Of a stretch of DNA of 64,000 nucleotides, positions 1 through 21,280 are shown piece by piece (position 1 is the stretch's first letter; each line of letters begins with the position of its first letter). Origin of the DNA: Elsinoe ampelina (lineage: Eukaryota); NCBI GenBank assembly GCA_010093995.1, contig ML992505.1, positions 746,273-810,272 of the forward strand, written 5' to 3'. Below the pieces are notes generated by a model, which was not told the origin of the DNA, ran no database searches, and saw nothing but the letters and a program-made list of their open reading frames with translations. The position numbers were made by a program, and so were the translations under genes.

Positions 1-3000
1 TTAATCTCTTAAGTAATTGACTTATATAGTTAGTTAGTAAGGATTAAACTATTAGCTCTTCTCTACGTTAGAAATCTATAAGGTTAATAGGGTTAACTCT
101 TAGGATCTTAATGTATAAGAAGATTCTCCCTATAGGTGCTTTATTCTAAATAGGCTAATTTAGTTAGTCTATTCTAGATCTAACCTTAGTCTAAATCTAA
201 GTCGGTCTACTAACTAGTCTCCTAACTAGTGCTTAATTACTTATAGTATTAATCCTAATACTAAGATTAATATTACTACCTTTCTTAAACTTAGAGAATT
301 TAACATTTAGTAATACAATTACTACCTTCCTATTAGGTGCCTATATCTTGTATATCCTGTCGGTTCTATCTATATAGCTAAGGAATACTTCTACTCTCTC
401 TCTATCTATAAGCTTGTCTTTTCTTCTATGTATAGAAAGGGACTTTAGGTTTATATAGGTGTATACCTTATAGCCCTAGACCCTAATATAATTAACTAAT
501 AGCTTAATACCTATATAGGCCTTAATAGATATAACTTGCTTATTATTAATTATAGGTCTAGTTACTGTTCTATTTCTTAGATATATATCTACCTAAACTA
601 CTTTAGGCTAGAACTTATTTAGTATTCTTAAGTCCTTAAGTATTACTCTTATACTATTCTCTAAGGTTTAGATATCTTTCTCTACTAGTCTATTCTAAAT
701 TAAATTATATAGCTTAGTAGTTGTGTAATAGATGCCTTCTTAGCGCTTCTACTACTTTAGAATCTTATTAAGTTCACTAGTATTATCTAATCTAGTGACC
801 TTAACCTTAGTATTACTCTTCTTCTTAACCCTTAGCTTCTACTTAATAAGCCTTTATAGAGCTTTATTTCTTGTCTTAAGTGGTATAATCTATGTCATCC
901 TTAAGTAGCTATCTATAAGCTTAAGGAAGTATCTAAATCCTTCCCTACTTACTTTAATAGAACTATAGATATCTATATAGATAAGCTAAAGAACCTCGGG
1001 TCTTCTTTGTAAGGTTTTGCCTCTTCTATTCCTTATCTTAGTAAGGGAACAGACCTTATATAGAATAGACAGATTATAGTTTAGGTTAATAAGTTTCTTA
1101 AGAGTTATAACTTTATAAAGATCCTTAAGCTTCTTAATCCTAAGGTAAGTAAATCTCCTATGCTAGAGCTAATACTCTATCTTAGAGTTGTTAGGTCCTA
1201 AGTTAATAAGATTCTCTTATTACTTATCCTAGGTTAGATATATATACTTAGTCTATAATGTAATTATAGACTAGGTAGCAAGGAATACTAAATCCTAATT
1301 AGCTAGATCTAGAATTAAGCCGGGCTTAGATCTAGAATGCGGCTTTTAATTAGCTAATTACTTAAAGAGGGATTAGATAATATATACCCCCCCTCGAATT
1401 CTAGCTTTAAGCAGTAGTTACTTCTACTAATTAAGGACAAGAAAAGAATTTAAATTAAGAACTCTAGAAACCTCTAAATCTAAGTATAGCTTATAATAGA
1501 AGACTAAATTTACACTAAGATTAGGTATATAAAGAGCCTATACCTTTATCTTATTTCTCTTCTTAGTCTTAATAACTATAGTTCCTATTAACTATAACTA
1601 AAGGTAACCCCCCCTAACCTAGATCTATTAAGTGTAAATCTTACTTAATAGGCCCCTAAAGAGAGTTAGCTTATCTATTATATAGTTAGATACTCTAGAG
1701 TTAAGCATCTACTAATAGTATAGAAGCTTACCTTAAACCTCTAATGTAGAACCTATAGTCTTAAGCTCTTTATCACTAGAAAGGACTTCTAGTAGTAGAG
1801 ATAGAGATATTAATAGTAGACCTCCTTTAGTAGCTAGATAGGCTTTGCCTTTCCTCTTTAACTTAGCTACTTTAAGAGAGTCTATCCTCTTAGTAAGCTA
1901 CCTTATAAGTCTAATTAGTTCCTAACGTTTAGGTAACTATTTCCTTATAGAGCTACTCCTTTTAGTAACTCTATAGGATAGCTAGACATGCTTCTTAGCT
2001 TATTAGAGATAAGGACACCTAGAAATAGTATATCTAGGTTCCTTACATAAGATATATATATAGCTTAAGCTTCTACTAGTTCCTTGTTATAGTCTGCCTC
2101 TTATAAACATTGCTATGTCTAGCTTCTTCCTCTAATTCTCTTTCTCTCTTAGAATGCTTAGGATAGTTTTAATATCTAGCCTAGGCTAGACATCGATACT
2201 ATCCCTAATAGATTACTAAGATTCTAAGAGAGCACTAAGGAGTTGCTATAGCTTAGTAATAGAGAGTTCTATCTACCTAGCTTTAGGTATAATATAGATA
2301 ATTCTCCTTACTAGCTAAGTTAGATATGCCTAGGCTTCTATAATAGAGATCTTCTCTAATATAGTATAGTTAGAGAACTCCTTTATAAGCTGCCTACCTA
2401 TAGATATAAGCCTCTTAGTATATTTAGCCTTAAGTATATTCTATGCCTACCTTGCTCTTATCTTGCCTTAGATAAGGAGGTTATCCTTATAGTTAATATA
2501 AAGCTTAATCTAGTATAGACAAAGAGCATTAGCCTTTCTAGTCTATAGTAAATACTAGAACTAAGCAATTAGTGTAGAGGTAGTTAAGGAGGATAGTGTA
2601 TTTAATAAAGAAGCTATTAATAATAATAGTAATTTAAGATTAGCTATATTATTATTAAGGATATAGGTAACTTCTTTTATCTTAAGCTATAATTTTATTA
2701 TACTAAACTAGTGCTTGTAGTTTTCATAGCTAAGTTCGGCTATAGACTTTCTAATTAATAATGTATCTATAGCGGAGAATAAAAATTAAATAAATAGATA
2801 AAGGTTAAGTTCCGGAGATTAATAACCTTTAAGTTAATATAGTTAATAAGGCTAGCTTAGCCTTAGAAAGAACAATTAATAAAAATAAAGTTGTTTAGTT
2901 ATTTATAGCTAATAAATAGCAGCTGTTATGTAATTATAGAAATAAATCTATAGTAGACGTCTTAATTACGTCCTACTTAATATACTAAGTAACTAGTCTT

Positions 3001-3147
3001 TTACGCTTTATACCGCCTCTACTAATCTATCTAAGATTAAGATAATAGAGGGGAAACGGAGGAGAATACTAATAGAATCCGGCCTAATTTTAATAACGTA
3101 GATGCTTAACTACGGTATATATAATTCTATACTTATACTATAGCCCC

Positions 3148-3159
3148 GGGCTTATAACC
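3148..3159 (-). other. Primer-binding site of copia element A
   Basis: Minus strand reads ...CA|GGTTATAAGCCC, a RIP variant of the GGTTATGAGCCC PBS typical of fungal copia elements. Confidence 0.75.
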
Positions 3160-3358
3160 TGTTAAGTAGAAGGCACGTTTAGAGGTAGAATATTATATAG
3201 AACTAATCGTATACTAGTTAGGTAATAGACGAGTTAATTAAAAGAAGTCTATCTACTAGAAGAAAGAATAGCTATAAATCTCTAGGCCTTAGCATTACAT
3301 GACTTAAGGTTATATAACTTTATAGCCTAATTATCTAGAGAGAGCTATATTCTTAACA
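3160..3358 (-). repeat. 5' LTR of copia element A (~199 bp)
   Basis: Bounded by inverted termini tgttaag...cttaaca and directly adjacent to the PBS. Confidence 0.8.
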
Positions 3359-5027
3359 TTTATTAAGATATTAAGACTTAGAAAAAGAAGAAGAAAACTA
3401 GTATATAAAGCACACGTAATATTAAGAGTAGAGCGGCTAGAAGCCTAGGCTATAATACTAAGATTACATAACTAATTTAAACTATATCTTAACTAAATTT
3501 AGTTTATATCTATCTTATATTACTACTTCCTCTCTTAAACGTATTTACTCTTAAATACTATTATATAGTTCGTTCCTTATTAATCTAGCTTAGATAAGGC
3601 TTATCTATATAAGAATCTAGATAGTTATATAGTATATTAGCTACTTCTTTAAGATTGTTAATTAACTACTAGGTAAGATTCTCTAGATAGCTCTTCTAGC
3701 TTATATAAGTAACTAGCTTCCCTTATAGTATATGTATATTAATTATATCGTCTACCTTATACTCTTTCTTACTATTAACCTCTACTAGAGGTAGTTCCTT
3801 AAAGGCTTAGCCTAGTAAGGGGTTATTTAGATACTTAGTAAGAAGGTTAGCATAGAACATAGAGTAAATTCTTTATAGTATAGCTAGTAGATTAAGCTTA
3901 TACACTAATAGTAACTGCTTTTCGAGGATCTTATAAGGACTAATATACTTTAGTAGTAGCTTTAGATTGCCCTATAGCCGGAGGTTCTTCGTCGATAACT
4001 ATACTAAATTACTAGCTTTAAACTCTATTAGCTAGTAGTATTTATTAGCTTACTCTACTATTCGTAACTAAGTAATAGTAAGGTTAGCTTTAGTAATAGT
4101 AAGGGCTTCTTCTAGTTGTTTAGTAAGCGCGCGAATATTAGCCTTATTAAGCTTAGCTCTTATTAATAGTGCATCGGAAGAGAGCTAGAAGCTTAGCCTT
4201 AGCTTATATTCTCTTATAACCTTAAATAGTAATAGCTTAGTACTTTCCGAGGGGTTAGTATTAGTAAAGAACTCTATAACTAGTAGGACAAGAGTCTAAT
4301 TACTAAACTATATTATATAGGACTAGATAACTCGTTTAAACTCTTAGTTTATAACTTCTAATTAGCTGTCTATTTAAGAGTAGCTAGTAGTAGATAGCTT
4401 AGCTATAATCTTTAGAATCTAGTAGAGCCTCTTCTATACGTCGCTAACGAACTAAGGGCCGTAGTTAGAGGTAATACTATCTAGTAGGCTATGTAGTTTC
4501 TATACGTAGAAGAATAATAGCTTAGCTATCTCGAATATAGAGGTCCCTTCTTCTCCCTAGAAGTAAGAGATTAAGTGTCGCTTCTTAGATAAGTAATCGA
4601 TAATATATAGCGCTATATTATAGCTATCTACTAGGGGTAGGCTAGCAACAAAGTCTATAGTAATATATTACTAAGGTCTCACCGGAATAGGTAATAGTAA
4701 TAGGAGACTAGCTAGTAAGCTATAGCGAGCCTTTAAGCGCTTATAGTTGTAATAGTTAGCGACGAACCTCTTAACGTTAGAATTGTACCTAGGGATATAG
4801 AAAGTAAACTTAATTATAGTAGCTGTCTTAGTAGCTCCTTTGTATATATAATTCTTTAATATATAGACCCCTTAGATAACTTTCGTAGCTATAGAGAAAG
4901 GCACGATTAATCGGCCGGCGGCGTATAGTATTCCCTTCTTAATTATAACATTAGTCGATAGTAACTATTTCCTCTTTAGGAAGGCTTCTATTATATAGTA
5001 AATACTGTAAACTATCTCGAAGTTAGA
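3359..5027 (-). mobile_element. Chromoviral Ty3/gypsy element B, 3' part (integrase, chromodomain, PPT, interrupted 3' LTR 3359-3522)
   Basis: Integrase zinc-finger/core region ~4000-4950. Chromodomain-like EYEVDDII..YLxxWKGY..TW ~3620-3770. PPT (minus ttaagagaggaagtag) at 3523-3538. 3359-3522 is a direct repeat of 22974-23137. Confidence 0.8.
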
Positions 5028-5490
5028 TGTTATAAACTGTCTAAACATAGTCTACGCTAGTAGTCTAAGCTAAGCTAAGAATAAGAGAGTTCTACTTCTA
5101 TAGTAGTATAGTACTAAGGTAAGAGTTAGAGAAGATATGTCTTATAGATAATAAAGTACAATTAGATAGTATTATAAAGGCTAGCCTTAGCAATACTAGT
5201 GTTCGCTATCTAGACGAGGTTAACTATAGTACTTATATAAGGTAAGGACTATTCCTATATATATATATTCTCCCTTGTGTTCTCTATATGCTCTATATAC
5301 TCCGTAGCGAGAGTCGGAGGTAATATAGAGTATACGTCCGCTAGTAACCTATGCGCTTTATAGTTTTAGAGGTAGAGCTACTAGAGAAGATAGAGAACTA
5401 AGTAAACGTTAGGCTAGGTTACGTAATAATCTTAGTAGCTTAATTAGTCCTAACGTCTCTACGTTCTAGCTGTCCTACTAGTTTATAACA
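5028..5490 (-). repeat. 3' LTR of element C copy 1 (463 bp)
   Basis: tgttataaac...gtttataaca termini; matches 11580-11727, 12202-12604 and 21281-21743. Confidence 0.92.
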
Positions 5491-5564
5491 TTACTCTCCT
5501 CCTTTAATCGAGTTGTCCTAACAAGTAAGTATTCTTTCTTACCTTTACGCGCTATATACTAAAT

Positions 5565-6113
5565 ATGCCTTCTAGTTGTCGAAGGCATAGTAAATCTAGT
5601 ATATCTACACGAAAGAATCTCTCTAAGTTTATTAAACTATTTAGAACTAATATACTATAGGCTTATTCTTATTATAAATTAAAGGGGCTAGACTATAAGG
5701 TCTATGTTTAGTCGGGTATCTATAGCTAGTATATCGTAAGTAACTACTTAGGTTATAATATTTAGGTAACAAAATTAGAATAGTAGTGTCTCTAGTCTAA
5801 GTACATTTATTTACGAAAGAAATTAGTTATAGCTAAGGCTACTAGAAGGAAAGCTAAAGAAGCTTATAAAAAGGTAAAAGAGACTTATTAAAGAGCTATA
5901 GGTAATAAGCTTCGCCTACGCGAAGAGATATAAAAGTTAGAGAACAAGGTAGAGAAAGTAATCTCTTTAGAGGAGACCCGTATTTAAGTCCTAGAGTAGG
6001 AGGAAATACTATTGTTAGTAGATCCCGTTCTACTATAGAATTAGTAGTTATTTATACCTAACTCTAATTAGAGTTCCTTATTTAGTAATAATTAGAGCGC
6101 TTCTATTAGTTAA
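5565..6113 (+). pseudogene. RIP-degraded antisense ORF inside element C copy 1: Zn2Cys6-spaced motif plus coiled coil (~182 aa; end uncertain)
   Basis: ATG at 5565. All in-frame stops are TAG/TAA, derivable by RIP. TAT codons at 5664, 5673, 5694, 5721, 5730 and 5754 are spaced C-x2-C-x6-C-x8-C-x2-C-x7-C, followed by an E/K/A/R-rich helical segment. Confidence 0.6.
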
Positions 6114-9100
6114 GTAGTCTTTCTTAGGCATTCTCGTTTTTATTTAGTGTTAGTAGCGTTAGGTCCGCCTAGTCGGTTTACTTAGGATAGGTTTTTAGTT
6201 TAATAATCTAGAATTATTTACGAGGTAAGGTGTTTCTCTAGTTCCTATATTGCCTTACTATACTAATGTCCTTTCTAGTAGATAAGATAGTAACGTTTTT
6301 CTCTTATAGATTTATAACGTAAAACTCTTTTAATCTTATATCGTAGCTCCTATGTTTCTTTATCTAGTTTAATAGGTCTAGGTACTATGTCCTATAGTGC
6401 TTTCTCTAATAGTAATATATAAAAGACTAGGTAGATCCTTATATATCTAGGTAGTTCTAGTTTATATACGTTTTTGTTTTTCTTTTCTAGGATCTTAAAG
6501 GGTCCTAGTTTAGTATAGTTAAGTTTCTTACTCGGTCGTTTCGTTTTAATGTTTTTACTAAGGAGGTAAACCTTCTCTCTCTCCTATAGAATTAGTCCTA
6601 TAATTCTCTTCCGGTTAGTAAACTCTACTATTCTTTATGATATAAATACTATATTATAGTATAGCTAGTTATATAGTTTCTTAATGTTAGCTACTAGTAT
6701 ATTAGTATTCTTAGATATTAGCTTAATTCTAAGTGTGTTATAGTATAGATCCGGGTGTATTCTATAGTTTATATAGAATAGTAAAATTCTATTCGCTAAC
6801 TTTCTATTATTAATAGCGAGCTCTATAAGTAGTAATAGCGTCGCCTATAAGTCTTACTTATAGTTTAGGTAGTATTATAGGTACTACTCTAGTACTTAAT
6901 TTGCCTATTTAGTTTGTCTATCCGTTTATAGGTAAAAGGAGATTAATAGCTTATGTTTAACTCCTAGTAGGTCTATAAATAATTACTAGAATTGTGACGT
7001 AAATAGCTTATCTCTATTAGTTATTAGGTCTCGTAGTACTCTATATTATAAAATAATTATTTAGAGGAAGATAAAGACTATATCCTTAGTAGTTGCTATT
7101 GTCTTATATAGTACAAAGTAGTAATACTTCGTAAACCTATCTACTAGAACTAAAATACTATTGTACTTTACACTTATAAGAGGTTCTTCTAATAGTAGTA
7201 GAGGTCCTATAAAGTCTATCGTAACTAATTACTATAGTTTGTCTAGTAGTAGTAAGAGTTATAGTAGGCTATATAGTTTATATCGAGAGTGCTTAGACTT
7301 ATAGTATATATCGTAGGCAGCGATATACGTCTTAATATTGTTTCGGAGTTCTTTCTAGAGGTAGTTTTATATAATAAGTTTAATAGTCTTATCGATCCTA
7401 CTATGTCCCGCCATTAAGTTATTATAGTATATTTAAATAACTTCTTTCTTCTATTCTTACGTAAGCTCCTAGGTAAGACTATATAACTACTCTACCTTCG
7501 GGTGCTTATAGACTAAAGCGCTATCCTACTACTTTAGTATAGAGGCCTCTATTATTGTTATATTTTTTAAGTAATCTAGCTAGCAGCTAAGAGTGTCTAC
7601 TTTACTATTCTCTAATCCCTTAACATAGTAGATCTAGAAGTTATAGCTTATAAGTGTTTCTAACTATCGAACCTGTTATCTATTAAGAACCTTAGTTATT
7701 GTCTAATATAGAAGGTTCTTATAGTTAGTATAGACTTATACGAGTAAGGTTATCCCTTCTAAGTATACTCTCTATTCGTAGAACGCTTTTATAATTATAA
7801 GTAATTCCTTGTCGTGTATATTATAGTTAAGTTTAAGTCTAGTCATTTTTTGTAAGTAGTATATAATTAGGTAGCGTTGTTCTTCTATGTCCTTTTACAC
7901 TAGATACGCTTCTATCGCAAAGTCCGAGGCATCCGTTTCTAGTAGTACTTATTAGTCTAGGTCGAAGAGTACTAGGATAGGTACTATTATAAGTCTAAAC
8001 TTTAGCTTCTTAAAGGCCTACCTACATCTCTTGTTAAAGACAAAGCTAGTTTCCTTTTTCGTAAGGTTAGATATTAGCGTAGCTACCTTAGAGAATTCTT
8101 TAATAAACTTATAGTAGTAGTTAAAGAACTCTAGTAGCGCTTAAATCTCCTTAACTATCGTAGGTTCCGGCTAGTTATTTACTAACTTAATCTTTCTCGG
8201 ATTAGGTCCGATACTATTAGTAGATATAATATAGTCTAGAAATTATATCTTATATTTATAAAACTTACACTTAGAGAGCTTTACTAGTAGGTCTTTTTCT
8301 TTTAGTTTCTATAGCACTTTACGAATATGTCCTATATGTTTGTTATATGTCTTTAAGAAGATAATAATATTGTCTAAATATGCTAAGATAAAGTCGTTAA
8401 GGTATTCTTATAGAGTGTTATTAATTAACTCTTAGAAGGTTATAGGAGTGTTAGTTAACCTAAAGGGCATAACGAGGTACTTATATAGACTCTATTATGT
8501 CCTAAAAGTCGTTTTTTACTCCTTGCTCTCCTTTATTTATACTTAATAATAGGCGTCTCTAATGTTAATTACGGTAAACTATTTAGCTCTAAGAAGTTAG
8601 TCTTAAAGTTTGTTAATCCTTAGTAGGGAATAGTAATTCTTCCTAGTAAGTATATTAAGTTTCTAGTAATTAATATATATTTATAACATTCTATCCTTTT
8701 TAGGTGTAAAAAGCACTCTATATACAATAGGTAATTTTAATAGTTATATAAATCCTTTAAGTAAGTACTTATTAATATAGTTCTTAAGGATGTTCTTCTC
8801 TTATTTCGATAGTAGTATAAGACCTTAATAGTGTATTAGGGATTTACTCTTTTTAAAAGGTATTTCGTAATTCTATAGTTTATATTAGAGTAAGGCTATA
8901 ATACTTTTCCTTTCTTTAAATAAGTCCTTAAAGTCTTTATATTTTAGCGAAAGTACTTAATTACTTACGCTAGCGATAGTCTTAACTATTAGTTATACCT
9001 ATACTGTCCTTATAGTTAGTATCTACGGAGCTAATTATACTCTCTATATCCTATAATTACACTTAGGGAATTCGAGTGTTTCTTTAATCTAGTCTACGTC

Positions 9101-11579
9101 TAGATTATATTATTAAAGCTAGTCTATACTAAGTACTATATTATACTATATATTAACTATATCGATTAATCGTTTTTCTATATATGTTTCGATTTTAATT
9201 ATAACGTTTTATAGTTTCTAAGTGACTTTCCCGTTCTTCCCTATAAGGGTTCTATCTACTATAGTAAGTAGGTAAGGTAACTCCTTCTAGTATTAATAAG
9301 GTTTAAGCTAATTAGTAACTGTTATAGAGACGTAGCTATAGTTAGCTTCTAAATCTATTATTACTCTTACCTTACTCCCTTGTATTTTAACTTCTAGTAT
9401 AAAGTAGTTTAATATATAGATCTTTATTATATTAAGGCTTTAGCTAGTGTTATTGTCTTACCTTATTAGGCAATAACTAGCTAGTTTTTTGTCATTATAG
9501 CTCCTTAGATAAGTAGCTAATCCCTTCCTATACGTATCTACTATTAGTACTATATCTATTAGGCAAGTTATGTTTTGTCGCTATTTAATATAGTAAGGTA
9601 AACTTCTAGCGCCTAAGTCCCTTAGTAACTATAAAGTCTAATAATTCTCTACTAGTTACACTAAGTAGTGTTATACACCCGTATAGGTATAACTATTCCT
9701 TCTAGGTGTAGCTAGGCGTTAGTATTAAAGACGAAAACAGGTTATGTAGATTTATCTTATCGCGTCCTATTCTAGTAGTAGGTGTATATTATTATATAAT
9801 TCCTCTATATCCCTATAAGGTATACTTTAAGTCGTCCGCTTAATAGTAGTATATCGTCGTTATTGTTAGATAAGTCTCTATCTATGTTATTATATTATAG
9901 TTGTTTAGTGTATTCTTTGTTATATTTCTCTTTATTGCTACTACCTCCGGCATAGTTATAGTTAGTAAGGCTACACTAAGTATATTCCTATACTTAGCTA
10001 TAGGGAATAGTACTACCTCTTTCGATTACTAAGAAGTCCGTAGTGTATTTAAGACTAATAGTCTCTTCTCTAAGTATATTATGTAAGTAAATAGTATAGT
10101 ACTATTCGCAATTTAGATTTATATATTTCTAGAGCGACATATAATATACCTTTCCTTATAGTTTGCTATAAGAGCTAAAGGTAAGACTACTATATTATTA
10201 TATAGCACTTACGTTCTAATACTTCGTCTTAATAATTGTATATTAGTAATTGTCGCTAACTACCTTCTAAGGCTAGTTACTATTACTACTAATTATAGAG
10301 AGCCCTTCTAGGTTAGGTTCCTAGTCTAGCTATTTCGTTAGTTACCTACGCTTAGATAGCTTATATAGGAACTATCTAGATCCTTGCTTGTCTAATAAGT
10401 AAATATAACAAGAGTTATTATAATATACTATCTATAATAGCGTTACGTGTTAGCTTTGTTATTTACTATTAGTCGTAGAGATATTAAGTATAATATCTAG
10501 AGAGGATTCTACTACCTCTCGAGTTATTATAGACTTCTTCTATGTTTCCTTACCTACGCTAAAGGTCGTTAGGTCTTCTATAGTAGTATTAGCCTTTTTT
10601 TCTACTAGCCTGGTAACTATTATATATAATTTATTAGCTAGCGCCTCTTATTAGTAGTCCCTAGCCTAATGCCTAGGTCTTTTATACTTAAAATATAAGT
10701 TGTCTCGTCTATACTTCTCTCTCTCTTTTTTACTAAGGAACTTTCCTCTATAGCTATAGTCTCGTACTTATAAGAGGTAGCCTTTACGTATAGTATTAAG
10801 TTCTATAGGGTCTCTATAGTTTCGAGAGAAACGCGTATATCTAGTGTTTACCTTATATCCTATATAACATTCTATATGTCGTTTATAAAGTCTATTATTA
10901 ATAGTAATTATAGTGTTTACTAGTTCCTAAAGACTATCGGGCAGCTTAAGTATTATTTAGTCTTTAACTAAGTCGCTTAGTCCTTAATAGAATACTAAGT
11001 ATTTAGTACTATCGTCCTAGTCTAGATATATTACAAGTTGTTAGAACTAGGAATAGTACTAGGCTATAGACCTACGTTGTTATAGTTGTCAAATCTTCGT
11101 TATAGCGATATATTCCTTATTAGATACGTTAAAGACTTACTTAATCTTTGCCTAGAAGATACTAAAGCTCTTAAAGATAGCTTTTATATCTAGGCCTAGT
11201 TATCTATCTAGGTAGCTACTTATATAAGGCTCGAACTACCCGAAGGTAGCGCCTTTAAGGTGTATCCTAGTATAGAGGACCTTTACTGCGTCGTTAGCGT
11301 ACTTATCTCCTTCTAGGGCAAAGAAGGCTTTAAGTTAAATAAGAAAGCGCCTTAAGTAGGCGTAGTTCCTATAGAAGAGTTCTACCTCTAACTTAGGCCT
11401 ACTTCGTTCTTCTATACTAAAAGACCTTCTATGTTCGCCCGAGGTTAAACTAGTAGTAGATATATCGTTAATAGTAAGCTTTCCTAGCTTACTAGTAATC
11501 GAAGATACTAATAGTAACTTAGAGCAAGAGTTACTTATTAACCTTATAGCGTACTATACTATAGTAAGAGTAGTTAAAA

Positions 11580-11727
11580 TGTTATAAACCGTCTAAACAT
11601 AGTCTACGCTAGTAGTCTAAGCTAAGCTAAGAACGAGGGAGTTCTACTTCTATAGTAGTATAGTACTAAGGTAAGAGTTAGAGAAGGTATATCTTATAGA
11701 TAATAAAGTACAATTAGATAGTATTAN
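11580..11727 (-). repeat. LTR of element C, truncated by assembly gap
   Basis: First 148 bp of the 463 bp LTR, starting tgttataaac. Confidence 0.9.
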
Positions 11728-12201: not shown

Positions 12202-12678
12202 AGTTCTACTTCTATAGTAGTATAGTACTAAGGTAAGAGTTAGAGAAGGTATATCTTATAGATAATAAAGTACAATTAGATAGTATTATAAAGGCTAGCC
12301 TTAGCAATACTAGTGTTCGCTATCTAGACAAGGTTAACTATAGTACTTATATAAGGTAAGGACTATTTCTATATACATGTGTTCTCTATTACGTTCTTTA
12401 TATGCTCTATATACTCCGTAGCGAGAGTTAGGAATAATATAGAGTACACGTCCGCTAGTAACCTATGTGCTCTATAGTTTTAAAGGTAGAGCTACTAGAG
12501 AAGATAGAGAACTAGGTAAATATTAGGCTAGGTTACGTAATAATCTTAGTAGCTTAATTAGTCCTAACGTCTCTATATTCTAGCTGTCCTACTAGTTCGT
12601 AACATTACTCTCCTCCTTTAATCGAGTTGTCCTAATAAGTAAGTATTCTTCCTTGTCCTTACGCGCTATGTACTAAAT

Positions 12679-13227
12679 ATGTCTCCTAGTTGTTAAAGGT
12701 ATAGTAAATCTAGTATATTTATACGAAAGAATCTCTTAGAGTTTATTAAACTATTCGGAACTAATATACTATAGGCTTATTCTTATTGTAAATCGAAGGG
12801 GCTAGACTATAAGGTCTATATTCGGTCGGGTATCTATAGCTAGTATATCACAAGTAACTACTCGAGTTATAATATTTAAGTAACAAAATTAGAATAGTAG
12901 CGTCTTTAGTCTAAGTATATTCGTTTACGAAAGGAATTAGTTATAGCTAAGACTACTAGAAGAGAAGCTAAAGAAGCTTATAAAAAGGTAAAAGAGGCTT
13001 ATTAAAGAGCTATAGGTAATAAGCTTCGCCTATGTAAAGAGATATAAAAGTTAGAGGACAAGGTAGAGAAAGTAATCTCTCTAGAAGAGACCTATATTTA
13101 AGTCTTAGAGCAGGAGGAAATGCTATTATTAGTGAATCCCGTCCTACTATAGGACTAGTAGTTATTTATGCCTAACTCTAATTAGAGTTCCTTACTTAGT
13201 AACAATTAAGGTGCTTCTATTAGTTAA
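12679..13227 (+). pseudogene. Antisense Zn2Cys6-like/coiled-coil ORF relic in element C copy 2
   Basis: Colinear with 5565-6113 (offset 7114, no net indel). ATG retained. The second Cys codon is still TGT at 12787-12789. Confidence 0.6.
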
Positions 13228-14181
13228 GTAATCTTCCTTAGGCATTCTCGTTTTTGTTTAGTGTTTAGAGTGCTAGGTCTATCTAGTCAGTTTACTTAGA
13301 ATAGGTTCTCGATCTAGTAATCTAGAATTACTTATAAGGTAAGGTACTCCTCTAGTTCCTATATTGCTTTACTATACTAATGTCCCTTCTAGTAAATAAG
13401 ATAGTAGCATTTTCCTTTTATAAGTTTATAACGTAAAACCCTTTCTATCTTATACCGTGGCTCCTATGTTTCTTCCTCTAGTTCGATAAGTCTAGGTATA
13501 GTATTCTATAGTACTTTCTCTAGTAGTAATATATAAAAGACTAGATAAATCCTTATATGTCTTAGTAGTTCTAGTTTGTATATGTTCTTGTTTTTCTTTT
13601 CTAGGATCTTAAAGGGTCCTAGTTTAGTATAGTTAAGTTTCTTACTTAGTTGTTTTATTTTAATGTTTTTACTAAGGAGGTAAACTTTCTCCCCCTTCTA
13701 TAGAATTAGTCCTGTAATTCTCTTCCGGTTAGTAAACTCTACTATTCTTTATAATATAAATGCTATATTATAGTATAGCTAGTCGTGTAGTTTCTTAATA
13801 TTAGCTACTAGTATATTAGCATCCTTAGATACTAGCTTAATTCTAAGTATGTTATAGTATAGATTTAAGTATATTCTATAGTTTACGTAGAATAGTAAAA
13901 TTCTATTTGCTAACTTTCTATTATTAATAGCAAGCTCTATAAGTAGTAATAGCGTTACCTATAAGTCTTGCTTATAGTTTAGGTAGCATTATAGGTACTA
14001 CTCTAGTACTTAATTTGCCTATTTAGTTTATCTGTCCGTTTATAGGTAAAAGGAGATTAATAGCTTATATTTAACTCCTAGTAGGTCTATAAATAATTAC
14101 TAGAATTATAACGTAAATAGCTTATCCCTGTTAGTTATTAGGTCTTATAGTACTCTATATCGTAAAACAATTATTTAGAGG

Positions 14182-17100
14182 AAGGTAAAGGCTATATCCT
14201 CGGTAGTTACTATTATCTTATATAGGACAAAGTAGTAATACTTCGTAAACCTATCTACTAGGACTAGAATACTATTGTACTTTATACCTATAAGAGGTTC
14301 TTCTAATAGCGGTAGAGGTCCTATAAAGTCTATCGTAACTAATTACTATAGTTTGTCTAGTGGTAGTAAGAGTTATAGTAGGCTATATAGTCTATATCGA
14401 GAGTGCTTAGACTTATAGCATATATTATAGGCAACAATATACGTCTTAACATCGTTTCGGAGTTCTTTCTAAAGGTAGTTTTATATAATAAGTTTAATAG
14501 TCTTATTAATCCTACTATATCCCGCTATTAGGTTATTATAGTATATTTAAATAACTTCTTTCTTCCGTTCTTACGTAAGCTCCTAGGTAAGGCTATATAA
14601 CTACTCTACCTTCGGGTACTTATAGACTAGAGTGCCGTCCTACTACTTTAGTATAGAGGCCTCTATTATTGTTATGTTTTTTAAGTAATCCGGCCGGTAG
14701 CTAAGAGCGTCTACTCTGCTGTTCTCTAATTCCTTAACATAGTAGATTTAGAAGTTATAGCTTATAAGTGTTTCTAACTATCGAACCTGTTATCTATTAA
14801 GAACCTTAGTTATTATCTAATATAGAAGGTTCTTATAGTTAGTATAGACTTATATAGGTAAGGTTATCTCTTCTAGGTATACTCTCTATTTGTGGAACGC
14901 TTCTATAATCGCAAGTAATTCCTTATCGTATATATCGTAGTTAAGTTTAAGTCCGGTCATTTTTCGTAAGTAGTATACAATTAGGTAGCGTTATTCTTCT
15001 ATGTCCTTTTACACTAGATACGCTTCTATTACAAAGTCCGAGGCATTTGTTTCTAGTAGTGCTTATTAGTCTAGGTCGAAGAGTGCTAGGACAAGTGCTG
15101 TTATAAGTCTAAGCTTTAGCTTCTTAAAGGTCTACCTATACCTCTTGTTAAAGACAAAGCTAGTTTCCTTTTTCGTAAGGTTAGATATTAGCGTAGCTAC
15201 CTTAGAGAATCCTTTAACAAACTTATAGTAGTAGTTAAAGAACTCTAGTAGCGCTTAAACCTCCTTAACTGTCGTAGGTTCCGGCTAGTTATTTACTAAC
15301 TTAATCTTCTTCGAATTAGGTCTAATACTATTAGTAGATATAATATAGCCTAGAAATTGTATCTTGTATTTATAGAACTTATACTTAGAGAGTTTTACTA
15401 GTAGGTCTTTTTCTTTTAGTTTCTATAGTACTTTATAAATATATCCTATATGTTTATTATACATCTTTAAGAAGATAATAATATTATCTAAATATACTAA
15501 GATAAAATTGTTAAGGTATTCTTATAGAGTATTATTAATTAACTCTTAGAAGGTTATAGAAGTGTTAGTTAACCTAAAGGGCATAACGAGGTACTTGTAT
15601 AGACTCTATTACGTCCTAAAAGTCGTCTTTTACTTCTTACTCTCCTTTATTTATACTTAATAATAGGCGTCTCTAATATTAATTACAGTAAACTATTTAG
15701 CTCTAAGTAGTTAGTCTTAAAGTTTGTTAATCCTTAGTAGGGAATAGTAATTCTTCCTAGTAAGTGTATTAAGTTTCTAGTAATTAATGTATATTTATAA
15801 TGTTCTATTCTTTTTTAGTATAAAAAGCACTCCGTACGCAATAGGTAATTTTAATAGTTATATAAATCCTTTAAGTAAGTACTTGTCGATGTAGTTCTTA
15901 AGGATATTCTCCTCTTGTTTCGATAGTAGTATAAGACCTTAATAGTGTATTAGGGATTTACCTTCTTTAAAAGGTATTTTGTAATTCTATAGTTTATATT
16001 AGAGTAAGGCCGTAATGTCTTTCCTTTCTTTAAACAAGTCCTTAAAGTCTTTATATTCCGGCGGAAGTGCTTAATTACTTACGCTAGTAATAGCCCTAAC
16101 TATTAGTTATACCTATACTGTCCTTATAGTTAGTATCTATAGAGCTAATTATACTCTCTACGTTCTATAATTACACTTAGGGAATTTAAGTGTTTCTTTA
16201 ATCTAGTCCACGTCTAGATTATGTTATTAAAGCTAGTCTATACTAAGTACTATATCGTACTATATGTTAACTATATCGATTAATTGTTTTTCCGTGTGTG
16301 TTTTAATTTAGATTATAACGTTTTGTAGTTCCTAAGTAACTTTCCTATTCTTCTCTATAGGGGTTCTATCCGCTATAGTAAGTAGGTAAGGTAACTCCTT
16401 CTAGTATTAATAAGGTTTAAGCTAATTAGTAACTGTTATAGAGATGTAGCTATAGTTAGCTCCTAAATCTATTATTGCTCTTACCTTACTCTCTTATATT
16501 TCGACTTCTAGTATAAAGTAGTTTAATATATAGATCTTTATTATATTAAGGCTTTAGCTAGTGTTATTATCTTACCTTATTAGGTAACAACTAGCTAGTT
16601 TTTTGTCATTATAGCTCCTTAGATAAGTAGCTAATCCCTTCCTATATGTATTTACTATTAGTACTATATCTATTAGGCAAGTTATGTTTTGTCGCTATTT
16701 AACATAGTAAGGTAAACTTCTAGCGCCTAAGTCCCTTAGTGACTATAAAGTCCAANNNNNNNNNNAAGGTAAAGGCTATATCCTCGGTAGTTACTATTAT
16801 CTTATATAGGACAAAGTAGTAATACTTCGTAAACCTATCTACTAGGACTAGAATACTATTGTACTTTATACCTATAAGAGGTTCTTCTAATAGCGGTAGA
16901 GGTCCTATAAAGTCTATCGTAACTAATTACTATAGTTTGTCTAGTGGTAGTAAGAGTTATAGTAGGCTATATAGTCTATATCGAGAGTGCTTAGACTTAT
17001 AGCATATATTATAGGCAACAATATACGTCTTAACATCGTTTCGGAGTTCTTTCTAAAGGTAGTTTTATATAATAAGTTTAATAGTCTTATTAATCCTACT

Positions 17101-19339
17101 ATATCCCGCTATTAGGTTATTATAGTATATTTAAATAACTTCTTTCTTCCGTTCTTACGTAAGCTCCTAGGTAAGGCTATATAACTACTCTACCTTCGGG
17201 TACTTATAGACTAGAGTGCCGTCCTACTACTTTAGTATAGAGGCCTCTATTATTGTTATGTTTTTTAAGTAATCCGGCCGGTAGCTAAGAGCGTCTACTC
17301 TGCTGTTCTCTAATTCCTTAACATAGTAGATTTAGAAGTTATAGCTTATAAGTGTTTCTAACTATCGAACCTGTTATCTATTAAGAACCTTAGTTATTAT
17401 CTAATATAGAAGGTTCTTATAGTTAGTATAGACTTATATAGGTAAGGTTATCTCTTCTAGGTATACTCTCTATTTGTGGAACGCTTCTATAATCGCAAGT
17501 AATTCCTTATCGTATATATCGTAGTTAAGTTTAAGTCCGGTCATTTTTCGTAAGTAGTATACAATTAGGTAGCGTTATTCTTCTATGTCCTTTTACACTA
17601 GATACGCTTCTATTACAAAGTCCGAGGCATTTGTTTCTAGTAGTGCTTATTAGTCTAGGTCGAAGAGTGCTAGGACAAGTGCTGTTATAAGTCTAAGCTT
17701 TAGCTTCTTAAAGGTCTACCTATACCTCTTGTTAAAGACAAAGCTAGTTTCCTTTTTCGTAAGGTTAGATATTAGCGTAGCTACCTTAGAGAATCCTTTA
17801 ACAAACTTATAGTAGTAGTTAAAGAACTCTAGTAGCGCTTAAACCTCCTTAACTGTCGTAGGTTCCGGCTAGTTATTTACTAACTTAATCTTCTTCGAAT
17901 TAGGTCTAATACTATTAGTAGATATAATATAGCCTAGAAATTGTATCTTGTATTTATAGAACTTATACTTAGAGAGTTTTACTAGTAGGTCTTTTTCTTT
18001 TAGTTTCTATAGTACTTTATAAATATATCCTATGTGTTTATTATACATCTTTAAGAAGATAATAATATTATCTAAATATACTAAGATAAAATTGTTAAGG
18101 TATTCTTATAGAGTATTATTAATTAACTCTTAGAAGGTTATAGAAGTGTTAGTTAACCTAAAGGGCATAACGAGGTACTTGTATAGACTCTATTACGTCC
18201 TAAAAGTCGTCTTTTACTTCTTACTCTCCTTTATTTATACTTAATAATAGGCGTCTCTAATATTAATTACAGTAAACTATTTAGCTCTAAGTAGTTAGTC
18301 TTAAAGTTTGTTAATCCTTAGTAGGGAATAGTAATTCTTCCTAGTAAGTGTATTAAGTTTCTAGTAATTAATGTATATTTATAATGTTCTATTCTTTTTT
18401 AGTATAAAAAGCACTCCGTACGCAATAGGTAATTTTAATAGTTATATAAATCCTTTAAGTAAGTACTTGTCGATGTAGTTCTTAAGGATATTCTCCTCTT
18501 GTTTCGATAGTAGTATAAGACCTTAATAGTGTATTAGGGATTTACCTTCTTTAAAAGGTATTTTGTAATTCTATAGTTTATATTAGAGTAAGGCCGTAAT
18601 GTCTTTCCTTTCTTTAAACAAGTCCTTAAAGTCTTTATATTCCGGCGGAAGTGCTTAATTACTTACGCTAGTAATAGCCCTAACTATTAGTTATACCTAT
18701 ACTGTCCTTATAGTTAGTATCTATAGAGCTAATTATACTCTCTACGTTCTATAATTACACTTAGGGAATTTAAGTGTTTCTTTAATCTAGTCCACGTCTA
18801 GATTATGTTATTAAAGCTAGTCTATACTAAGTACTATATCGTACTATATGTTAACTATATCGATTAATTGTTTTTCCGTGTGTGTTTTAATTTAGATTAT
18901 AACGTTTTGTAGTTCCTAAGTAACTTTCCTATTCTTCTCTATAGGGGTTCTATCCGCTATAGTAAGTAGGTAAGGTAACTCCTTCTAGTATTAATAAGGT
19001 TTAAGCTAATTAGTAACTGTTATAGAGATGTAGCTATAGTTAGCTCCTAAATCTATTATTGCTCTTACCTTACTCTCTTATATTTCGACTTCTAGTATAA
19101 AGTAGTTTAATATATAGATCTTTATTATATTAAGGCTTTAGCTAGTGTTATTATCTTACCTTATTAGGTAACAACTAGCTAGTTTTTTGTCATTATAGCT
19201 CCTTAGATAAGTAGCTAATCCCTTCCTATATGTATTTACTATTAGTACTATATCTATTAGGCAAGTTATGTTTTGTCGCTATTTAACATAGTAAGGTAAA
19301 CTTCTAGCGCCTAAGTCCCTTAGTGACTATAAAGTCCAA
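14182..19339. repeat. Near-identical 2574 bp direct duplication (14182-16755 / 16766-19339) around a 10-N gap; probable unmerged contig overlap
   Basis: The halves are essentially identical (one A/G difference noticed), unlike the RIP-diverged C copies, and the junction is exactly the N run at 16756-16765. Confidence 0.85.
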
Positions 19340-21280
19340 TAATTCTCTACTAGTTGCACTAAGTAGTATTATACACCCGTATAGGTATAACTATTCCTTC
19401 TAGGTATAGCTAGGCGTTAGTATTAAAGACAAAAACAAGTTATATAGATTTGTCTTATTACGTCCTATTCTAGTAGTAGGTATATATTATTATATAATTC
19501 CTCTATATCCCTATAAGGTATACTTTAAGTTGTCCGCCCGATAGTAGTACGTCGTTATCGTCGTTGTTAAATAAGTTCTTATCTATGTTATTACATCGTA
19601 GTTATTCGGTGTATTCTTCGTTATATTCCTCTTTGTCGCTACTATCTCTAGTATAGTTATAGTTAGTAAGGCTACACTAAGTATATTCTTTTACTTAGCT
19701 ATAGGGAATAGTACTACCTATCTCGATTACTAAGAAGTCTATAGTATATTTAAGACTAATAGCGTCTTCTCTAAGCATATTGTATAAGTAGATAGTATAG
19801 TACTATTTATAATCTAGATTTATACATTTCTAGAGCGATATATAATACGCCTTTCCTTGTAGTTTGCTATAAGAGCTAAAGGTAAGGCTACTATATTGTT
19901 ACGTAGCACTTACGTTCTAATACTTTATCTCGATAATCGTATATTAGTAATTATCGCTAACTACCTTCTAAGGTTAGTTAATGTTACTACTAATTATAGA
20001 GAGCCTTTCTAGGTTAAGCCCCTAGTTTAGCTATTTTATTAGTTACCTACGCTTAGATAGCTTATATAGGAACTAACTAGATCCCTACTTATCTAATAAG
20101 TAAATATAATAAGAGTTATTATAATATGCTATCTATAATAGCGTTACGTTTTAGCTTTGTCATTTACTATTAGTCGTAGAGATATTAAGTATAATATCTA
20201 GAGAGGATTCTATTACCTCTTAAGTTGTTATAGACCTCTTCTATGTTTCCTTACCTACGCTAAAGGTCGTTAGGTCTTCTATAGTAGTGTCGGCCTTTTT
20301 TTCTACTAGCCCGGTAACTATTATATATAATCTATCGGCTAGCGCCCCTTGTCGGTAGTCTCTAGCCCGATACCTAGGTCTTTTACACTTAAAATATAGA
20401 TTATCTTGTCTGTACTTCTCTCTCTCTTTTCTACTAAGGAACTTTCCTCTATAACTATAGCCTCGTACCTATAAGAAGTAGCCTTCGTATATAGCATTAA
20501 GTTCTATAGAGTCTCTATAGTTTCGAGAGAAACGCGTATATCTAGTGTTTGCCTTATATCCCCTATAACGTTCTATACGTCGTTTGTAAAGTCTATTATC
20601 AATAGCAATTATAGTGTCTACTAGTTCCTAAAGGCTATTAGGTAGCTTAGGTATTATTTAGTCTTTGACTAAGTCGCTTAGTCCTTAATAGAATACTAAG
20701 TGTTTAGTACTATTATCCTAGTCTAGGTGCATTACGAGTTATTAGAACTAGGAATAGTACTAGGCTATAGACCTACGTTGTTATAATTATTAGATCTTCG
20801 TCGCGGCGATACATTTCTTATTAGATACGTTAAAGACTTACTTAATCTTTGCCTAGAAGATGCTAAAGCTCTTAAAGATAGCCTTTATATCTAGGCCTAG
20901 TTATCTATCTAGGTAGCTACTTATATAAGGCTCGAACTACTCGAAGGCGGCGCCCTTAAGGTGTATCCTAGCATAGAGAACCTTTGCTGCGTTGTTACTA
21001 TACTTGTCTCTCTCTAGAGCGAAGAAGGCTTTAAGTTAAATAAGAAAGCGCCTTAAGTAGGCGTAGTCCCCGTAGAAGAGTTCTACCTCTAACTTAGGCC
21101 TACTTTGTCCTTTTATACTAAAAGACCTTCTATATTCGCCCGAGGTTAAACTAGTAGTAGACATGTCGTTAATAGTAAGCTTTCCTAGCTTACTAGCGAT
21201 CGAAGATACTAATAGTAACTTAGAGCAAGAGTTACTTATTAACCTCGTAGTATGCTATACTATAGCAAGGGTAGTTAAAA

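Follow-up and report, generated by a model that had tools for sequence, protein, structure and literature searches.

Antisense frames and retrotransposon copies in the window

The window, a 64-kb stretch of Elsinoe ampelina DNA, carries two degraded copies of a gypsy-type LTR retrotransposon, A and B, each accompanied by a further reading frame on the strand opposite gag-pol, lying past the end of pol and short of the polypurine tract and 3' LTR. The features on which the analysis rests are as follows.

5027..5490, minus strand: 3' LTR of copy A, beginning TGTTATAAAC at 5490; the element is read on the minus strand
5491..5505, minus strand: polypurine tract of copy A, directly upstream of the 3' LTR on that strand, read from the sequence
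5565..6113, plus strand: antisense accessory frame of copy A, 183 codons long and made a pseudogene by RIP, with 17 stops (TAG or TAA); family HMM match at 5580-6008 (E 1.1e-17)
5664..5756, plus strand: remnant of the putative zinc-cluster region of copy A, codons 34-64, with six former Cys codons and a former His codon (47), all TAT, from the codon table and the column map to the family
5766..6014, plus strand: remnant of a predicted long coiled-coil helix of copy A, about codons 68-150, including a conserved AEEAIAVEE-type stretch, from the alignment and the AlphaFold model of homologue P0001
6227..6340, minus strand: candidate chromodomain remnant at the C-terminus of pol, weakly matched by BLASTP against intact chromodomains (E 0.016 and 0.059, X at Trp positions)
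6398..11578, minus strand: RIP-degraded gag-pol of copy A with gag, RT, RNase H, integrase and SH3, from Pfam with X at stops
12202..12604, minus strand: LTR adjoining copy B, common to copy A across an N gap (11640-11726 equals 12202-12288 at 100%)
12679..13227, plus strand: antisense accessory frame of copy B, likewise a pseudogene through RIP, interrupted by 16 stops, with TGT kept at codon 37; family HMM match at 12700-13125 (E 3.5e-24)
13230..21279, minus strand: pol and gag of copy B, which contain a near-identical 2.6-kb duplication around a gap of 10 N

Further instances of the copy A 3' LTR lie at 21280-21743 (90%) and at 11579-11726 plus 12202-12604, the latter interrupted by the N gap; the start codon of the antisense frame lies about 75 nt inside the LTR edge. 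Pfam domains on the minus strand of the window comprised gag, RVT_1, RT_RNaseH, Integrase_H2C2 and SH3_Tf2-1, with the SH3 domain of copy A at about 6398-6577, and a tblastn search with an intact pol covered 8953-6398 at 34% identity. An earlier note on this DNA, made from the sequence alone, had placed the antisense frame between the chromodomain and the polypurine tract, opposite gag-pol. The LTR, polypurine tract and SH3 domain bear out the position of the frame, but the chromodomain itself is only weakly recognisable, and a Pfam search for a chromodomain in the window returned none.

ATG codons at 5565 and 12679 open a 183-codon frame in both copies, as the note had seen. The two antisense regions align without gaps over 1101 columns at 94% identity, and 107 of the 113 differences between the copies (910 columns) are transitions. 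Counting of stops gave 13 TAG and 4 TAA in copy A and 9 TAG and 7 TAA in copy B, with TGA absent from both, as the note had stated; neither a non-RIP stop nor a frameshift was found in the two copies. This composition is nonetheless without discriminating power, because RIP turns TGA into TAA and because all six frames of the region are equally stop-laden (25-36 stops per ~303 codons in every frame). A two-copy consensus favouring C over T and G over A left 22-32 stops in every frame, and Pfam found no match on the antisense frames of the window, Zn_clus included.

The codon table also agrees with the series of TAT codons described earlier, at codons 34, 37, 44, 53, 56 and 64 of copy A (spacing x2, x6, x8, x2, x7), with codon 37 of copy B preserved as TGT at 12787-12789. 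Among the 40 of 232 variable places listed for the element family in DNA contigs of the same organism, position 5671 showed G rather than A at about 70% of depth, such that codon 36 is TGT in most family copies. Taken alone, Cys-like spacing is weak evidence, since the pattern [YC]x2[YC]x6[YC]x5-12[YC]x2[YC]x6-8[YC] has five start sites in the six frames of a 26-kb AT-rich block, two corresponding to the antisense frames and three unrelated.

These three further occurrences, together with the similar stop density of the six frames, are what would be expected if the AT-rich composition left by RIP had merely yielded Tyr-rich and Lys/Glu-rich pseudo-frames by chance. We consider the likelihood of such an origin negligible given E-values of 1e-17 to 1e-24 in both search directions and a residue-by-residue fit to RIP. 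At 36 near-invariant columns of the family, departures in the window are single RIP-type transitions with two exceptions, and two window stops fall on Trp columns. The chance reading was rejected on the result of searching the six-frame translation of the 64 kb with an HMM of 110 intact proteins, including no window rows, which matched copies A and B and nothing else. At 5565-6113 and 12679-13227, therefore, lie two copies, inactivated by RIP, of a real accessory gene carried by a lineage of fungal Ty3/gypsy chromoviruses. The gene is dead in the window, and the element family to which it belongs is both dead and very abundant in the Elsinoe ampelina genome.

Intact relatives, genomic context and selection

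A profile built from the two window copies and searched against 1.84 billion representatives returned 15 matches at E<=1e-3 (best E 4.8e-19), which range from 67 to 211 aa and are either intact or RIP-like; 11 of the 15, with lengths of 152-211 aa, aligned over most of their length. All 11 intact homologues possess Cys at the six TAT columns, in the spacing C-x2-C-x6-C-x8-C-x2-C-x6-8-C, and His at codon 47, where the Tyr of the window frame (TAT) aligns to an invariant His of the family. The proposal that the TAT codons had once encoded Cys is hence upheld by the less-mutated relatives, in which His, as opposed to Cys, occurs only at codon 47, a position that the note had not counted among the six. 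In the alignment of 110 members Cys is invariant at five of these columns and conserved to at least 90% at the sixth.

Intact elements encode a stand-alone product of approximately 150-210 aa, which begins with a conserved N-terminal helix (SST-x-RR...FI..FG) and continues with the cluster motif C-x2-C-x6-C-K-V-H-[VI]-R-S-G-x-C-x2-C-x6-8-C. The cluster is followed by a [DN]-[VI]-[RKQ]-[VI]-T-x-SE-[WF]-x-RL motif, a helix of about 80 residues, and a disordered acidic tail carrying a conserved L-x-LSP-x-TW...GLPD-x-FW, of which P171, T173, W174 and W185 are at least 90% conserved in 110 sequences. Among the matches listed (120 of 225), UniRef gives the name 'Zn(2)-C6 fungal-type domain-containing protein' to two members, P0093 from Cercospora kikuchii and P0114 from Elsinoe australis, and the five named sources, Hortaea werneckii among them, are all Dothideomycetes. 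The ESM Atlas holds three Ascomycota clusters of 140, 122 and 62 members, whose structure neighbours are Zn(2)-C6 proteins at a TM of ~0.3, which we treat as a lead only.

Metagenome loci provided intact elements in which the context of the gene could be read, as the note had proposed to look for. At 48 of 60 loci the C-terminal end of pol lies on the opposite strand, between -70 and +138 nt from the end of the ORF; 8 of the remaining 12 are too short to judge and 4 lack such a pol, so that 48 of 52 testable loci are convergent. The polypurine tract and 3' LTR of these relatives are laid out as in the window. Pfam resolved four neighbouring pol ORFs as RT-RNaseH-IN-SH3-Chromo, the chromodomain (PF00385) being matched at E 1.6e-11 to 2.1e-15, with a protease in the three full-length ones, and two gag ORFs carry gag-zf-CCHC. 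Chromovirus traits are therefore represented in the window by gag, RT-RNaseH-IN and LTRs, and in the relatives by the full PR-RT-RNaseH-IN set.

This context bears on whether the ORF might be an ordinary host gene, or a captured fragment of a host transcription factor, whose adjacency to the element is incidental. Two loci, L044 and L045, would fit such a view in having the ORF without pol near a MIF4G/MA3 gene, as would the treatment of two members by UniRef as ordinary Zn(2)-C6 proteins. The convergent junction with pol argues the other way, and L045 proves to be an LTR-bounded derivative of 2.4 kb containing a fragment of gag; moreover, several database members are RIP-like in sequence, as repeats are. 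No longer or fused form of the family was found at E<=1e-3, which, as evidence of little weight, indicates no link to a known transcription-factor body. ORF distances also co-vary with those of integrase (r=0.41, a value reached by 0 of 2000 permutations; mean p-distance 0.52 for the ORF and 0.45 for the integrase segment). We accordingly regard a host gene with incidental adjacency as very unlikely, although the element's gene may have originated by ancient capture of a host factor.

The ORF is intact at 38 of the 60 metagenome loci, over 150-290 codons. From 35 unique CDS, 92 of 595 pairs had dS between 0.05 and 2, and across these dN/dS had a median of 0.333 and a range of 0.030-0.598, with no value at or above 1 and with 0.03-0.17 for the closest pairs. 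The antisense gene is under purifying selection, as the test suggested in the note was designed to reveal (dN/dS 0.03-0.60), and its divergence tracks that of integrase; family homology and pol context likewise agree with the claim that it is a real gene. An alternative source of conservation would be the sense transcript, if its 3' untranslated region, polypurine tract, and packaging or priming signals were what is maintained and the antisense frame were a by-product. The ORF does abut the polypurine tract and overlaps the last pol codons by up to 70 nt in some loci. Synonymous sites are nevertheless near saturation while the protein is kept (dS 0.42 with dN 0.012, and dS 0.66 with dN 0.031, in two example pairs), and the invariant six Cys and His, the confident predicted fold and the many ORFs that remain intact render this explanation highly improbable.

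Putative zinc cluster, fold and predicted dimer

The family has the six-Cys spacing of Zn(2)-Cys(6) clusters, C-x2-C-x6-C-x5-12-C-x2-C-x6-8-C, and the AlphaFold model of homologue P0001 (pLDDT 84.3, exceeding 90 for residues 20-150) folds the Cys region into a knot resembling a zinc cluster, with two short helices. A long helix follows at residues 75-156 with pLDDT 96-99, in agreement with the helix that the note had drawn after the cluster; a separate N-terminal model reached pLDDT 85.6. For both models the first 16 rows listed by Foldseek were Leu3, Pho7, Gal4, Hap1, Put3, Ppr1 or CBF3, at E-values of 0.27-3.1, none of them significant. Local fold fits gave an rmsd of 1.1 A over 28 columns for Ppr1 and 2.1 A over 29 for Lac9. 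With VIA-align the N-terminal model gave Z<=2.7 throughout (Ppr1 Z 2.1), and the full model aligned to long helices only. Searching the PDB by sequence profile returned coiled-coil noise, with Leu3 at E 0.53 and Lac9 at E 4.

Comparison with the Pfam Zn_clus model (PF00172), a check proposed at the outset, did not go in favour of the assignment. None of the 110 members reached the threshold of 21 bits; 31 of the 110 produced weak matches (best E 0.06), and 6 of the first 11 homologues scored 9.3-12.5 bits. The suggestion of a Zn(II)2Cys6 fit, and with it a Zn2Cys6-like identity of the cluster, is thus supported by the spacing, by the UniRef name of two members and by which proteins rank first among the fold matches, none significant, and fails with respect to the Pfam threshold.

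Set beside the Zn2Cys6 domains of Gal4, Ppr1, Put3, Leu3, Hap1 and Pho7, the family shares the canonical spacing, a fungi-only distribution and, in the models, two short helices after the CxxC pairs and a putative dimerising helix after a linker. It differs from these domains in scoring below the Pfam threshold, in an invariant K-V-H-[VI]-R-S-G loop, and, from the alignments, in having kept neither the Pro that normally precedes Cys4 nor the basic pattern that Gal4-type domains show between Cys2 and Cys3. Further differences from Zn2Cys6 proteins are an additional helix at the N-terminus, a helix of 80 residues whose predicted pairing is antiparallel, the lack of a regulatory middle-homology region, and the fact of being encoded by a retrotransposon.

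The note had also supposed the protein to be dimeric, for which the support comes from modelling. A homodimer model scored 0.50, versus 0.00 for the best of three controls. This mark is reached by 21 of 30 proteins whose solved structure is a pair of one chain, and by 0 of 23 with a single-chain structure; for eukaryotes the corresponding counts are 17 of 29 and 0 of 30. At least 86% of contacts agreed between runs, the partner pLDDT was at least 81, and the contacts were antiparallel. With its controls passed, the model supports a predicted binding of the protein to itself. Since the predicted coiled coil is antiparallel, two clusters would sit at opposite ends of a rod, unlike in Gal4-type dimers.

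Proposed function and comparison with known antisense genes

Searches of the open-access literature turned up no account of a protein of this kind from a fungal element. The closest published system is the Botrytis gene brtn, which lies antisense in Boty elements and was reportedly described by Zhao et al. (2011, Virology 417:248, pmid 21802103). Botrytis is a Leotiomycete, whereas the named sources of the family reported here are Dothideomycetes. Compared by description alone, brtn resembles the window gene in position and strand. In the parts of the sources consulted, it is presented as an additional antisense gene of a fungal chromodomain gypsy element, situated between pol and the 3' LTR, with no function assigned (PMC8365987, PMC7264820, PMC4227169), it has been mapped on BcGypsy1 (PMC8365987), and a Monilinia transcript similar to BRTN is noted (PMC5987419). 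The passages of PMC8365987, PMC7264820, PMC4227169 and PMC5987419 make no mention of a zinc cluster in its product. No BRTN-named protein occurred among the 120 of 225 matches listed, and a profile of the most divergent family members gave 26 matches, none of them carrying a Leotiomycete or BRTN name.

Antisense extra genes of LTR retrotransposons are described from plants and from Botrytis, none with a function, in the relevant passages of PMC7264820. The plant elements there include Grande, RIRE2, Retand and PvRetro13, whose antisense ORFs lie between pol and the 3' LTR, have no assigned function, and are conserved to a degree comparable with other element proteins (PMC7264820). These ORFs are like the window gene, as far as those passages go, in position, orientation and a conservation near that of other element proteins; they are unlike it in their plant hosts, in belonging mostly to non-chromovirus lineages, and in that the passages mention no zinc-cluster annotation (PMC7264820). 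The fungal family thus displays the traits of an aORF-3R, namely its position and strand, its retention, and conservation like that of other element proteins.

We infer that the product probably acts as a DNA-binding self-regulator of the element. Overall, the explanation that best accounts for the data, and to which we attach about even confidence, is that the accessory gene encodes a Zn2Cys6-type DNA-binding self-regulator. In such a scheme the cluster would bind two zinc ions in the manner of Gal4-type Zn2Cys6 domains, the ~80-residue helix would make a homodimer, and the protein would regulate the element's own LTR through DNA binding, the tail motif perhaps recruiting a host partner. That the two-zinc cluster, the helix homodimer and regulation of the element's own LTR should all hold together is somewhat less probable, and we propose the combination tentatively. 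Transcription of the gene might proceed leftward-to-rightward from the U3 side of the 3' LTR, by analogy with HBZ of HTLV-1, a small dimerising factor of DNA-binding type whose minus-strand gene is driven by the 3' LTR. The analogy is one of logic only, HBZ being a bZIP rather than a zinc-cluster protein and its source a vertebrate retrovirus.

The gene could also be real without its protein being a transcription regulator. The protein may instead serve the element life cycle as an adaptor stabilised by zinc or as a chaperone of nucleic acids, with possible roles in bridging cDNA or LTR ends, in targeting integration jointly with the chromodomain, in assembling particles, or in countering host silencing; the conserved C-terminal motif would then be a docking site. 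An antiparallel dimer with clusters far apart, as modelled, would suit bridging better than the binding of palindromes. The departure of the cluster from canonical Zn_clus, the conserved short motif within a disordered tail (P171, T173, W174, W185), and the lack of enrichment of CGG pairs, which are the half-sites usually bound by Zn2Cys6 domains, in LTR regions from four intact units all lean in the same direction. Nothing speaks against an adaptor or chaperone directly; however, the best fold matches are all DNA-binding Zn2Cys6 domains, and a cluster followed by linker, coiled coil and acidic tail is the architecture of a minimal Gal4-type activator, which counts against it. On balance we judge this alternative possible, though rather unlikely.

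The element LTR also contains short repeats, AC[TA]GA[GT]CA, in three to seven copies between a CACGTG box and a TATA box.

Returning to the self-regulator, a more specific and distinctly speculative version, which we consider unlikely as a whole, would make the protein the chromovirus lineage's own antisense Gal4-like factor. It would be driven by a bidirectional U3 enhancer in the 3' LTR, bind the AC[TA]GA[GT]CA repeats, and switch or balance sense and antisense transcription, in the way of HBZ or Tax of HTLV-1. With DNA-binding heads at both ends, an antiparallel dimer of this factor might in addition bridge the two LTRs of the element.

The product of this antisense gene has a recognisable architecture, consisting of a zinc cluster, a predicted dimerising coiled coil and a conserved tail motif, and has hundreds of intact natural relatives under selection, which opens the purpose of antisense extra genes to direct experiment. 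These results also demonstrate that the wrecks left by RIP can be read back to proteins given intact relatives elsewhere. A retrotransposon-borne Zn2Cys6-type factor, if true, would represent a new class of element-encoded regulator, and might give rise to host transcription factors or act in trans on host genes.

Tandem chromovirus copies and their antisense frame

The AT-rich block at 1-26000 of the window (GC 0.25-0.37) adjoins gene-type DNA with a GC content of 0.47-0.60. Self-comparison of the window identified within this block two tandem copies, A and B, of a gypsy element, with LTRs in common.

Mobile-element features of the AT-rich block (window coordinates)
5027-5490: LTR, repeated at 21280-21743
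5491-11578: internal region of copy A, from self-comparison
5565-6113, plus strand: antisense ORF of copy A
11579-11726 and 12202-12604: middle LTR, divided by an N gap
12605-21279: internal region of copy B, from self-comparison
12679-13227, plus strand: antisense ORF of copy B
~3831-3998, minus strand: second gypsy element, SH3_Tf2-1
~21822-22661, minus strand: further gypsy RNase H/RT fragment
~23166-23525, plus strand: DDE_3 transposase remnant

Pfam searches with stops read as X identified gag, RVT_1, RT_RNaseH, Integrase_H2C2 and SH3_Tf2-1 on the minus strand, and 8953-6398 was matched by intact pol proteins at 34% identity. Near the antisense ORF the two copies differ in 113 of 910 columns, and 107 of these 113 differences are transitions, the signature of RIP. 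The family is very numerous, with thousands of pieces in the same organism's DNA contigs. Copies A and B probably form a tandem LTR-internal-LTR-internal-LTR array sharing the middle LTR. The 475-N gap in that LTR (11727-12201) is bordered by an identical 87 nt (11640-11726 = 12202-12288, 100%); given these borders and the overlapping LTR pieces, it is probably spurious. A stretch of 2,574 nt is also doubled inside copy B around a 10-N gap (14182-16755 versus 16766-19339, 99.96% identity), which in a RIP-mutated copy looks like an assembly artefact rather than a true duplication. Other degraded mobile elements were found at 1-5026 and 21744-26000.

As the earlier note had described, both copies keep an ATG-initiated, colinear frame of 183 codons on the plus strand, interrupted solely by TAG or TAA. 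Copy A contains 17 such stops and copy B 16, and TAT stands at codons 34, 37, 44, 53, 56 and 64 (codon 37 being TGT in copy B). Taken alone, these features are weak: any TGA becomes TAA under RIP, stop density is alike across all six frames of the region, and a Cys-like spacing made of Tyr/Cys recurs three times in the same 26 kb at unrelated sites. Decisive evidence was needed from beyond the window.

Homologues and reversal of the RIP changes

A profile built from the two window wrecks (A2) matched 15 of 1.84 billion representative proteins at E<=1e-3 (best E 4.8e-19), 11 of them 152-211 aa in length, and alignment of the window frames to these homologues spans the first Met to near the end. 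The homologues possess a cluster, C-x2-C-x6-C-K-V-H-[VI]-R-S-G-x-C-x2-C-x6-8-C, followed by [DN]-[VI]-[RKQ]-[VI]-T-x-SE-[WF]-x-RL and a long charged helix that includes the stretch AEEAIAVEE, as well as a tail motif, L-x-LSP-x-TW...GLPD-x-FW. The six TAT codons, which had been proposed to be former Cys codons, coincide with the six invariant Cys columns of the family. TAT codon 47 likewise coincides with an invariant His column, and Trp columns fall at window TAG codons 73 and 169. Over 36 near-invariant family columns, all but two of the window's departures correspond to one C>T or G>A substitution each (e.g. GGA>AGA, ATG>ATA, CGT>TGT, GAG>AAG, GCA>GTA).

Position 5671, among the 40 of 232 variable places listed, is G in ~70% of family depth in the same organism's DNA contigs; codon 36 is thus TGT in most family copies, and shows TGT>TAT directly inside the genome. 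This TGT codon adds a further Cys in the interval from Cys1 to Cys2; the nearest homologue, P0001, carries Tyr there. Tyr-for-Cys versions were found in 4 of the 15 database matches (P0004, P0009, P0014 and P0015), as expected of repeats in RIP-active fungi.

In a reverse test, an HMM of 110 intact members, from which the window was excluded, was searched against the six-frame translation of the 64 kb and matched only 12700-13125 (E 3.5e-24) and 5580-6008 (E 1.1e-17), leaving the other mobile elements at 1-5026 and 21744-26000 without a match. The antisense frame is real, and the earlier note reconstructed it correctly in detail.

From 8000 candidates scored, 225 matches to the family were identified at E<=1e-3. 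No precomputed Pfam domain was present in any member among the 120 of 225 matches listed, and listed members are named 'hypothetical protein' or plainly wrongly (galactokinase, AcrA). One source calls P0016, P0017, P0031, P0054, P0071, P0099, P0102 and P0138 'galactokinase' or 'multidrug efflux pump subunit AcrA', names that clearly reflect mis-annotation of metagenome contigs. All five species named as sources among the matches listed are Dothideomycetes, representing three orders.

Linkage to the element and selection on the frame

Scanning of metagenome contigs yielded 60 loci with a homologue. At 48 of these, a gypsy pol on the opposite strand has its C-terminal end -70 to +138 nt from the ORF end; in the other 12, the contig ends too early (8 loci) or such a pol is lacking (L033, L044, L045 and L059). 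By Pfam, four neighbouring pol ORFs have the organization RT-RNaseH-IN-SH3-Chromo, with a protease in the three full-length ones, and two neighbouring gag ORFs consist of Retrotrans_gag with zf-CCHC; three of the small antisense ORFs gave no Pfam match. In several contigs that are circular assemblies, only ~440-780 nt separate the gag start from the small-ORF ATG, so the ORF starts near the LTR edge; the corresponding distance in the window is 75 nt. The element carries the antisense ORF as a gene of its own, with position and orientation established.

Exact repeats of 123-128 nt occur at both contig ends in L012, L029 and L040, and in L006 at 239-366 and one contig end, which shows that these contigs were assembled as circles, each from one LTR and the internal region, and are not complete linear elements. 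At L045, a 2.4-kb derivative (9575-11958) with flanking LTRs 95% alike retains part of gag and an antisense ORF intact over 175 codons, lacks pol and adjoins a MIF4G/MA3 gene, as was also noted for L044. Such a derivative could represent a non-autonomous element, or one on its way to domestication.

Intact antisense ORFs were found at 38 of the 60 loci. Among 35 unique coding sequences, 92 of 595 pairs had dS between 0.05 and 2; median dN/dS was 0.333 (range 0.030-0.598), with values of 0.03-0.17 for the nearest pairs and of 1 or more in none of the 92, a clear sign of purifying selection. Across 20 loci, ORF protein distances track the distances of the neighbouring integrase segment (r=0.41; 0 of 2000 permutations as high), and mean divergence is similar (0.52 versus 0.45). 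Conservation of the frame is likewise established, and its origin as a by-product of cis-acting sequence is ruled out by dN/dS and co-divergence with integrase.

Plant elements are known to carry additional antisense ORFs between pol and the 3' LTR (PMC7264820), and brtn is the antisense extra ORF of Boty in Botrytis and Sclerotinia (PMC7264820, PMC8365987, PMC4227169, PMC5987419); the relevant passages of these sources give the function of both as unknown. The likeness of the window family to brtn is one of position and orientation, taken from descriptions of brtn only. Full-text searches of the open-access literature turned up no account of a fungal LTR element that encodes a zinc-cluster protein.

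Protein architecture and possible role

No Pfam family scored above threshold for the antisense-ORF proteins. Zn_clus matched 31 of 110 members weakly (best E 0.06), as it did 6 of the first 11 homologues, among which DUF3716 occurred once (E 0.005). A PDB sequence profile search gave Leu3 at E 0.53, and two members are called 'Zn(2)-C6 fungal-type domain-containing protein' in UniRef. The AlphaFold model (110 sequences, pLDDT 84.3) predicts a helix at 17-31, short helices at 40-45 and 59-63 within the Cys region and a disordered tail; the long helix anticipated after the cluster is a single one at 75-156 (pLDDT 96-99). For this model and an N-terminal one (pLDDT 85.6), the first 16 Foldseek rows listed against 350,542 PDB chains named Leu3, Pho7, Gal4, Hap1, Put3, Ppr1 and CBF3, with no single match significant (E 0.27-3.1). 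VIA-align retrieved only coiled coils with the full model; with the N-terminal model, no match exceeded Z 2.7. A homodimer model scored 0.50 versus 0.00 for the best of three controls; of proteins whose solved structure is a pair of one chain, 21 of 30 reach the homodimer mark, and of those with a single-chain structure, 0 of 23 do (in eukaryotes, 17 of 29 versus 0 of 30). Contact agreement between runs was at least 86%, partner pLDDT at least 81, and the contacts antiparallel (88 with 123, 102 with 116, 109 with 109).

By its spacing, the UniRef name of two members and the identity of the best fold rows, the finger of the earlier note is Zn2Cys6-like; Zn_clus falls below the Pfam threshold and no Foldseek match is significant. 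The architecture of the protein is established; we read it as a dimerising rod that bears a divergent cluster of the Zn2Cys6-like type, 'like' rather than a certified family member. The cluster would bind zinc, and the rod would mediate dimerisation.

Given the proximity of the ATG to the LTR edge (~50-120 nt in relatives), the promoter must sit in U3 or the short spacer, and transcription would presumably run out of the 3' LTR. We surveyed 380 nt immediately upstream of the ORF in loci L001-L055 (23 loci counted). From the PPT side, the relatives' U3 presents a CACGTG box, 8-mer copies and a TATATA[CT] box; upstream of the last, CACGTG was found in 14 of 23 loci and some 8-mer at least three times (up to 7) in 16 of 23, mostly of type AC[TA]GA[GT]CA. 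At the matching place in the window LTRs, 146 nt before both ATGs, lies TTACGTAA (5419-5426 and 12533-12540), a RIP-mutated version of such a box. Speculatively, these boxes and repeats could drive both transcription directions and are candidate enhancer or binding sites for the antisense-ORF protein, which would then bind nucleic acid. CGG pairs were not enriched in the LTR regions of four intact units from the relatives. That the protein is a DNA-binding self-regulator is a tentative reading, only slightly ahead of a non-transcriptional adaptor or bridging role, and the remaining weight falls on functions not yet imagined. The antisense gene in the window is a dead relic, and the value of the finding lies in the protein family to which it points.
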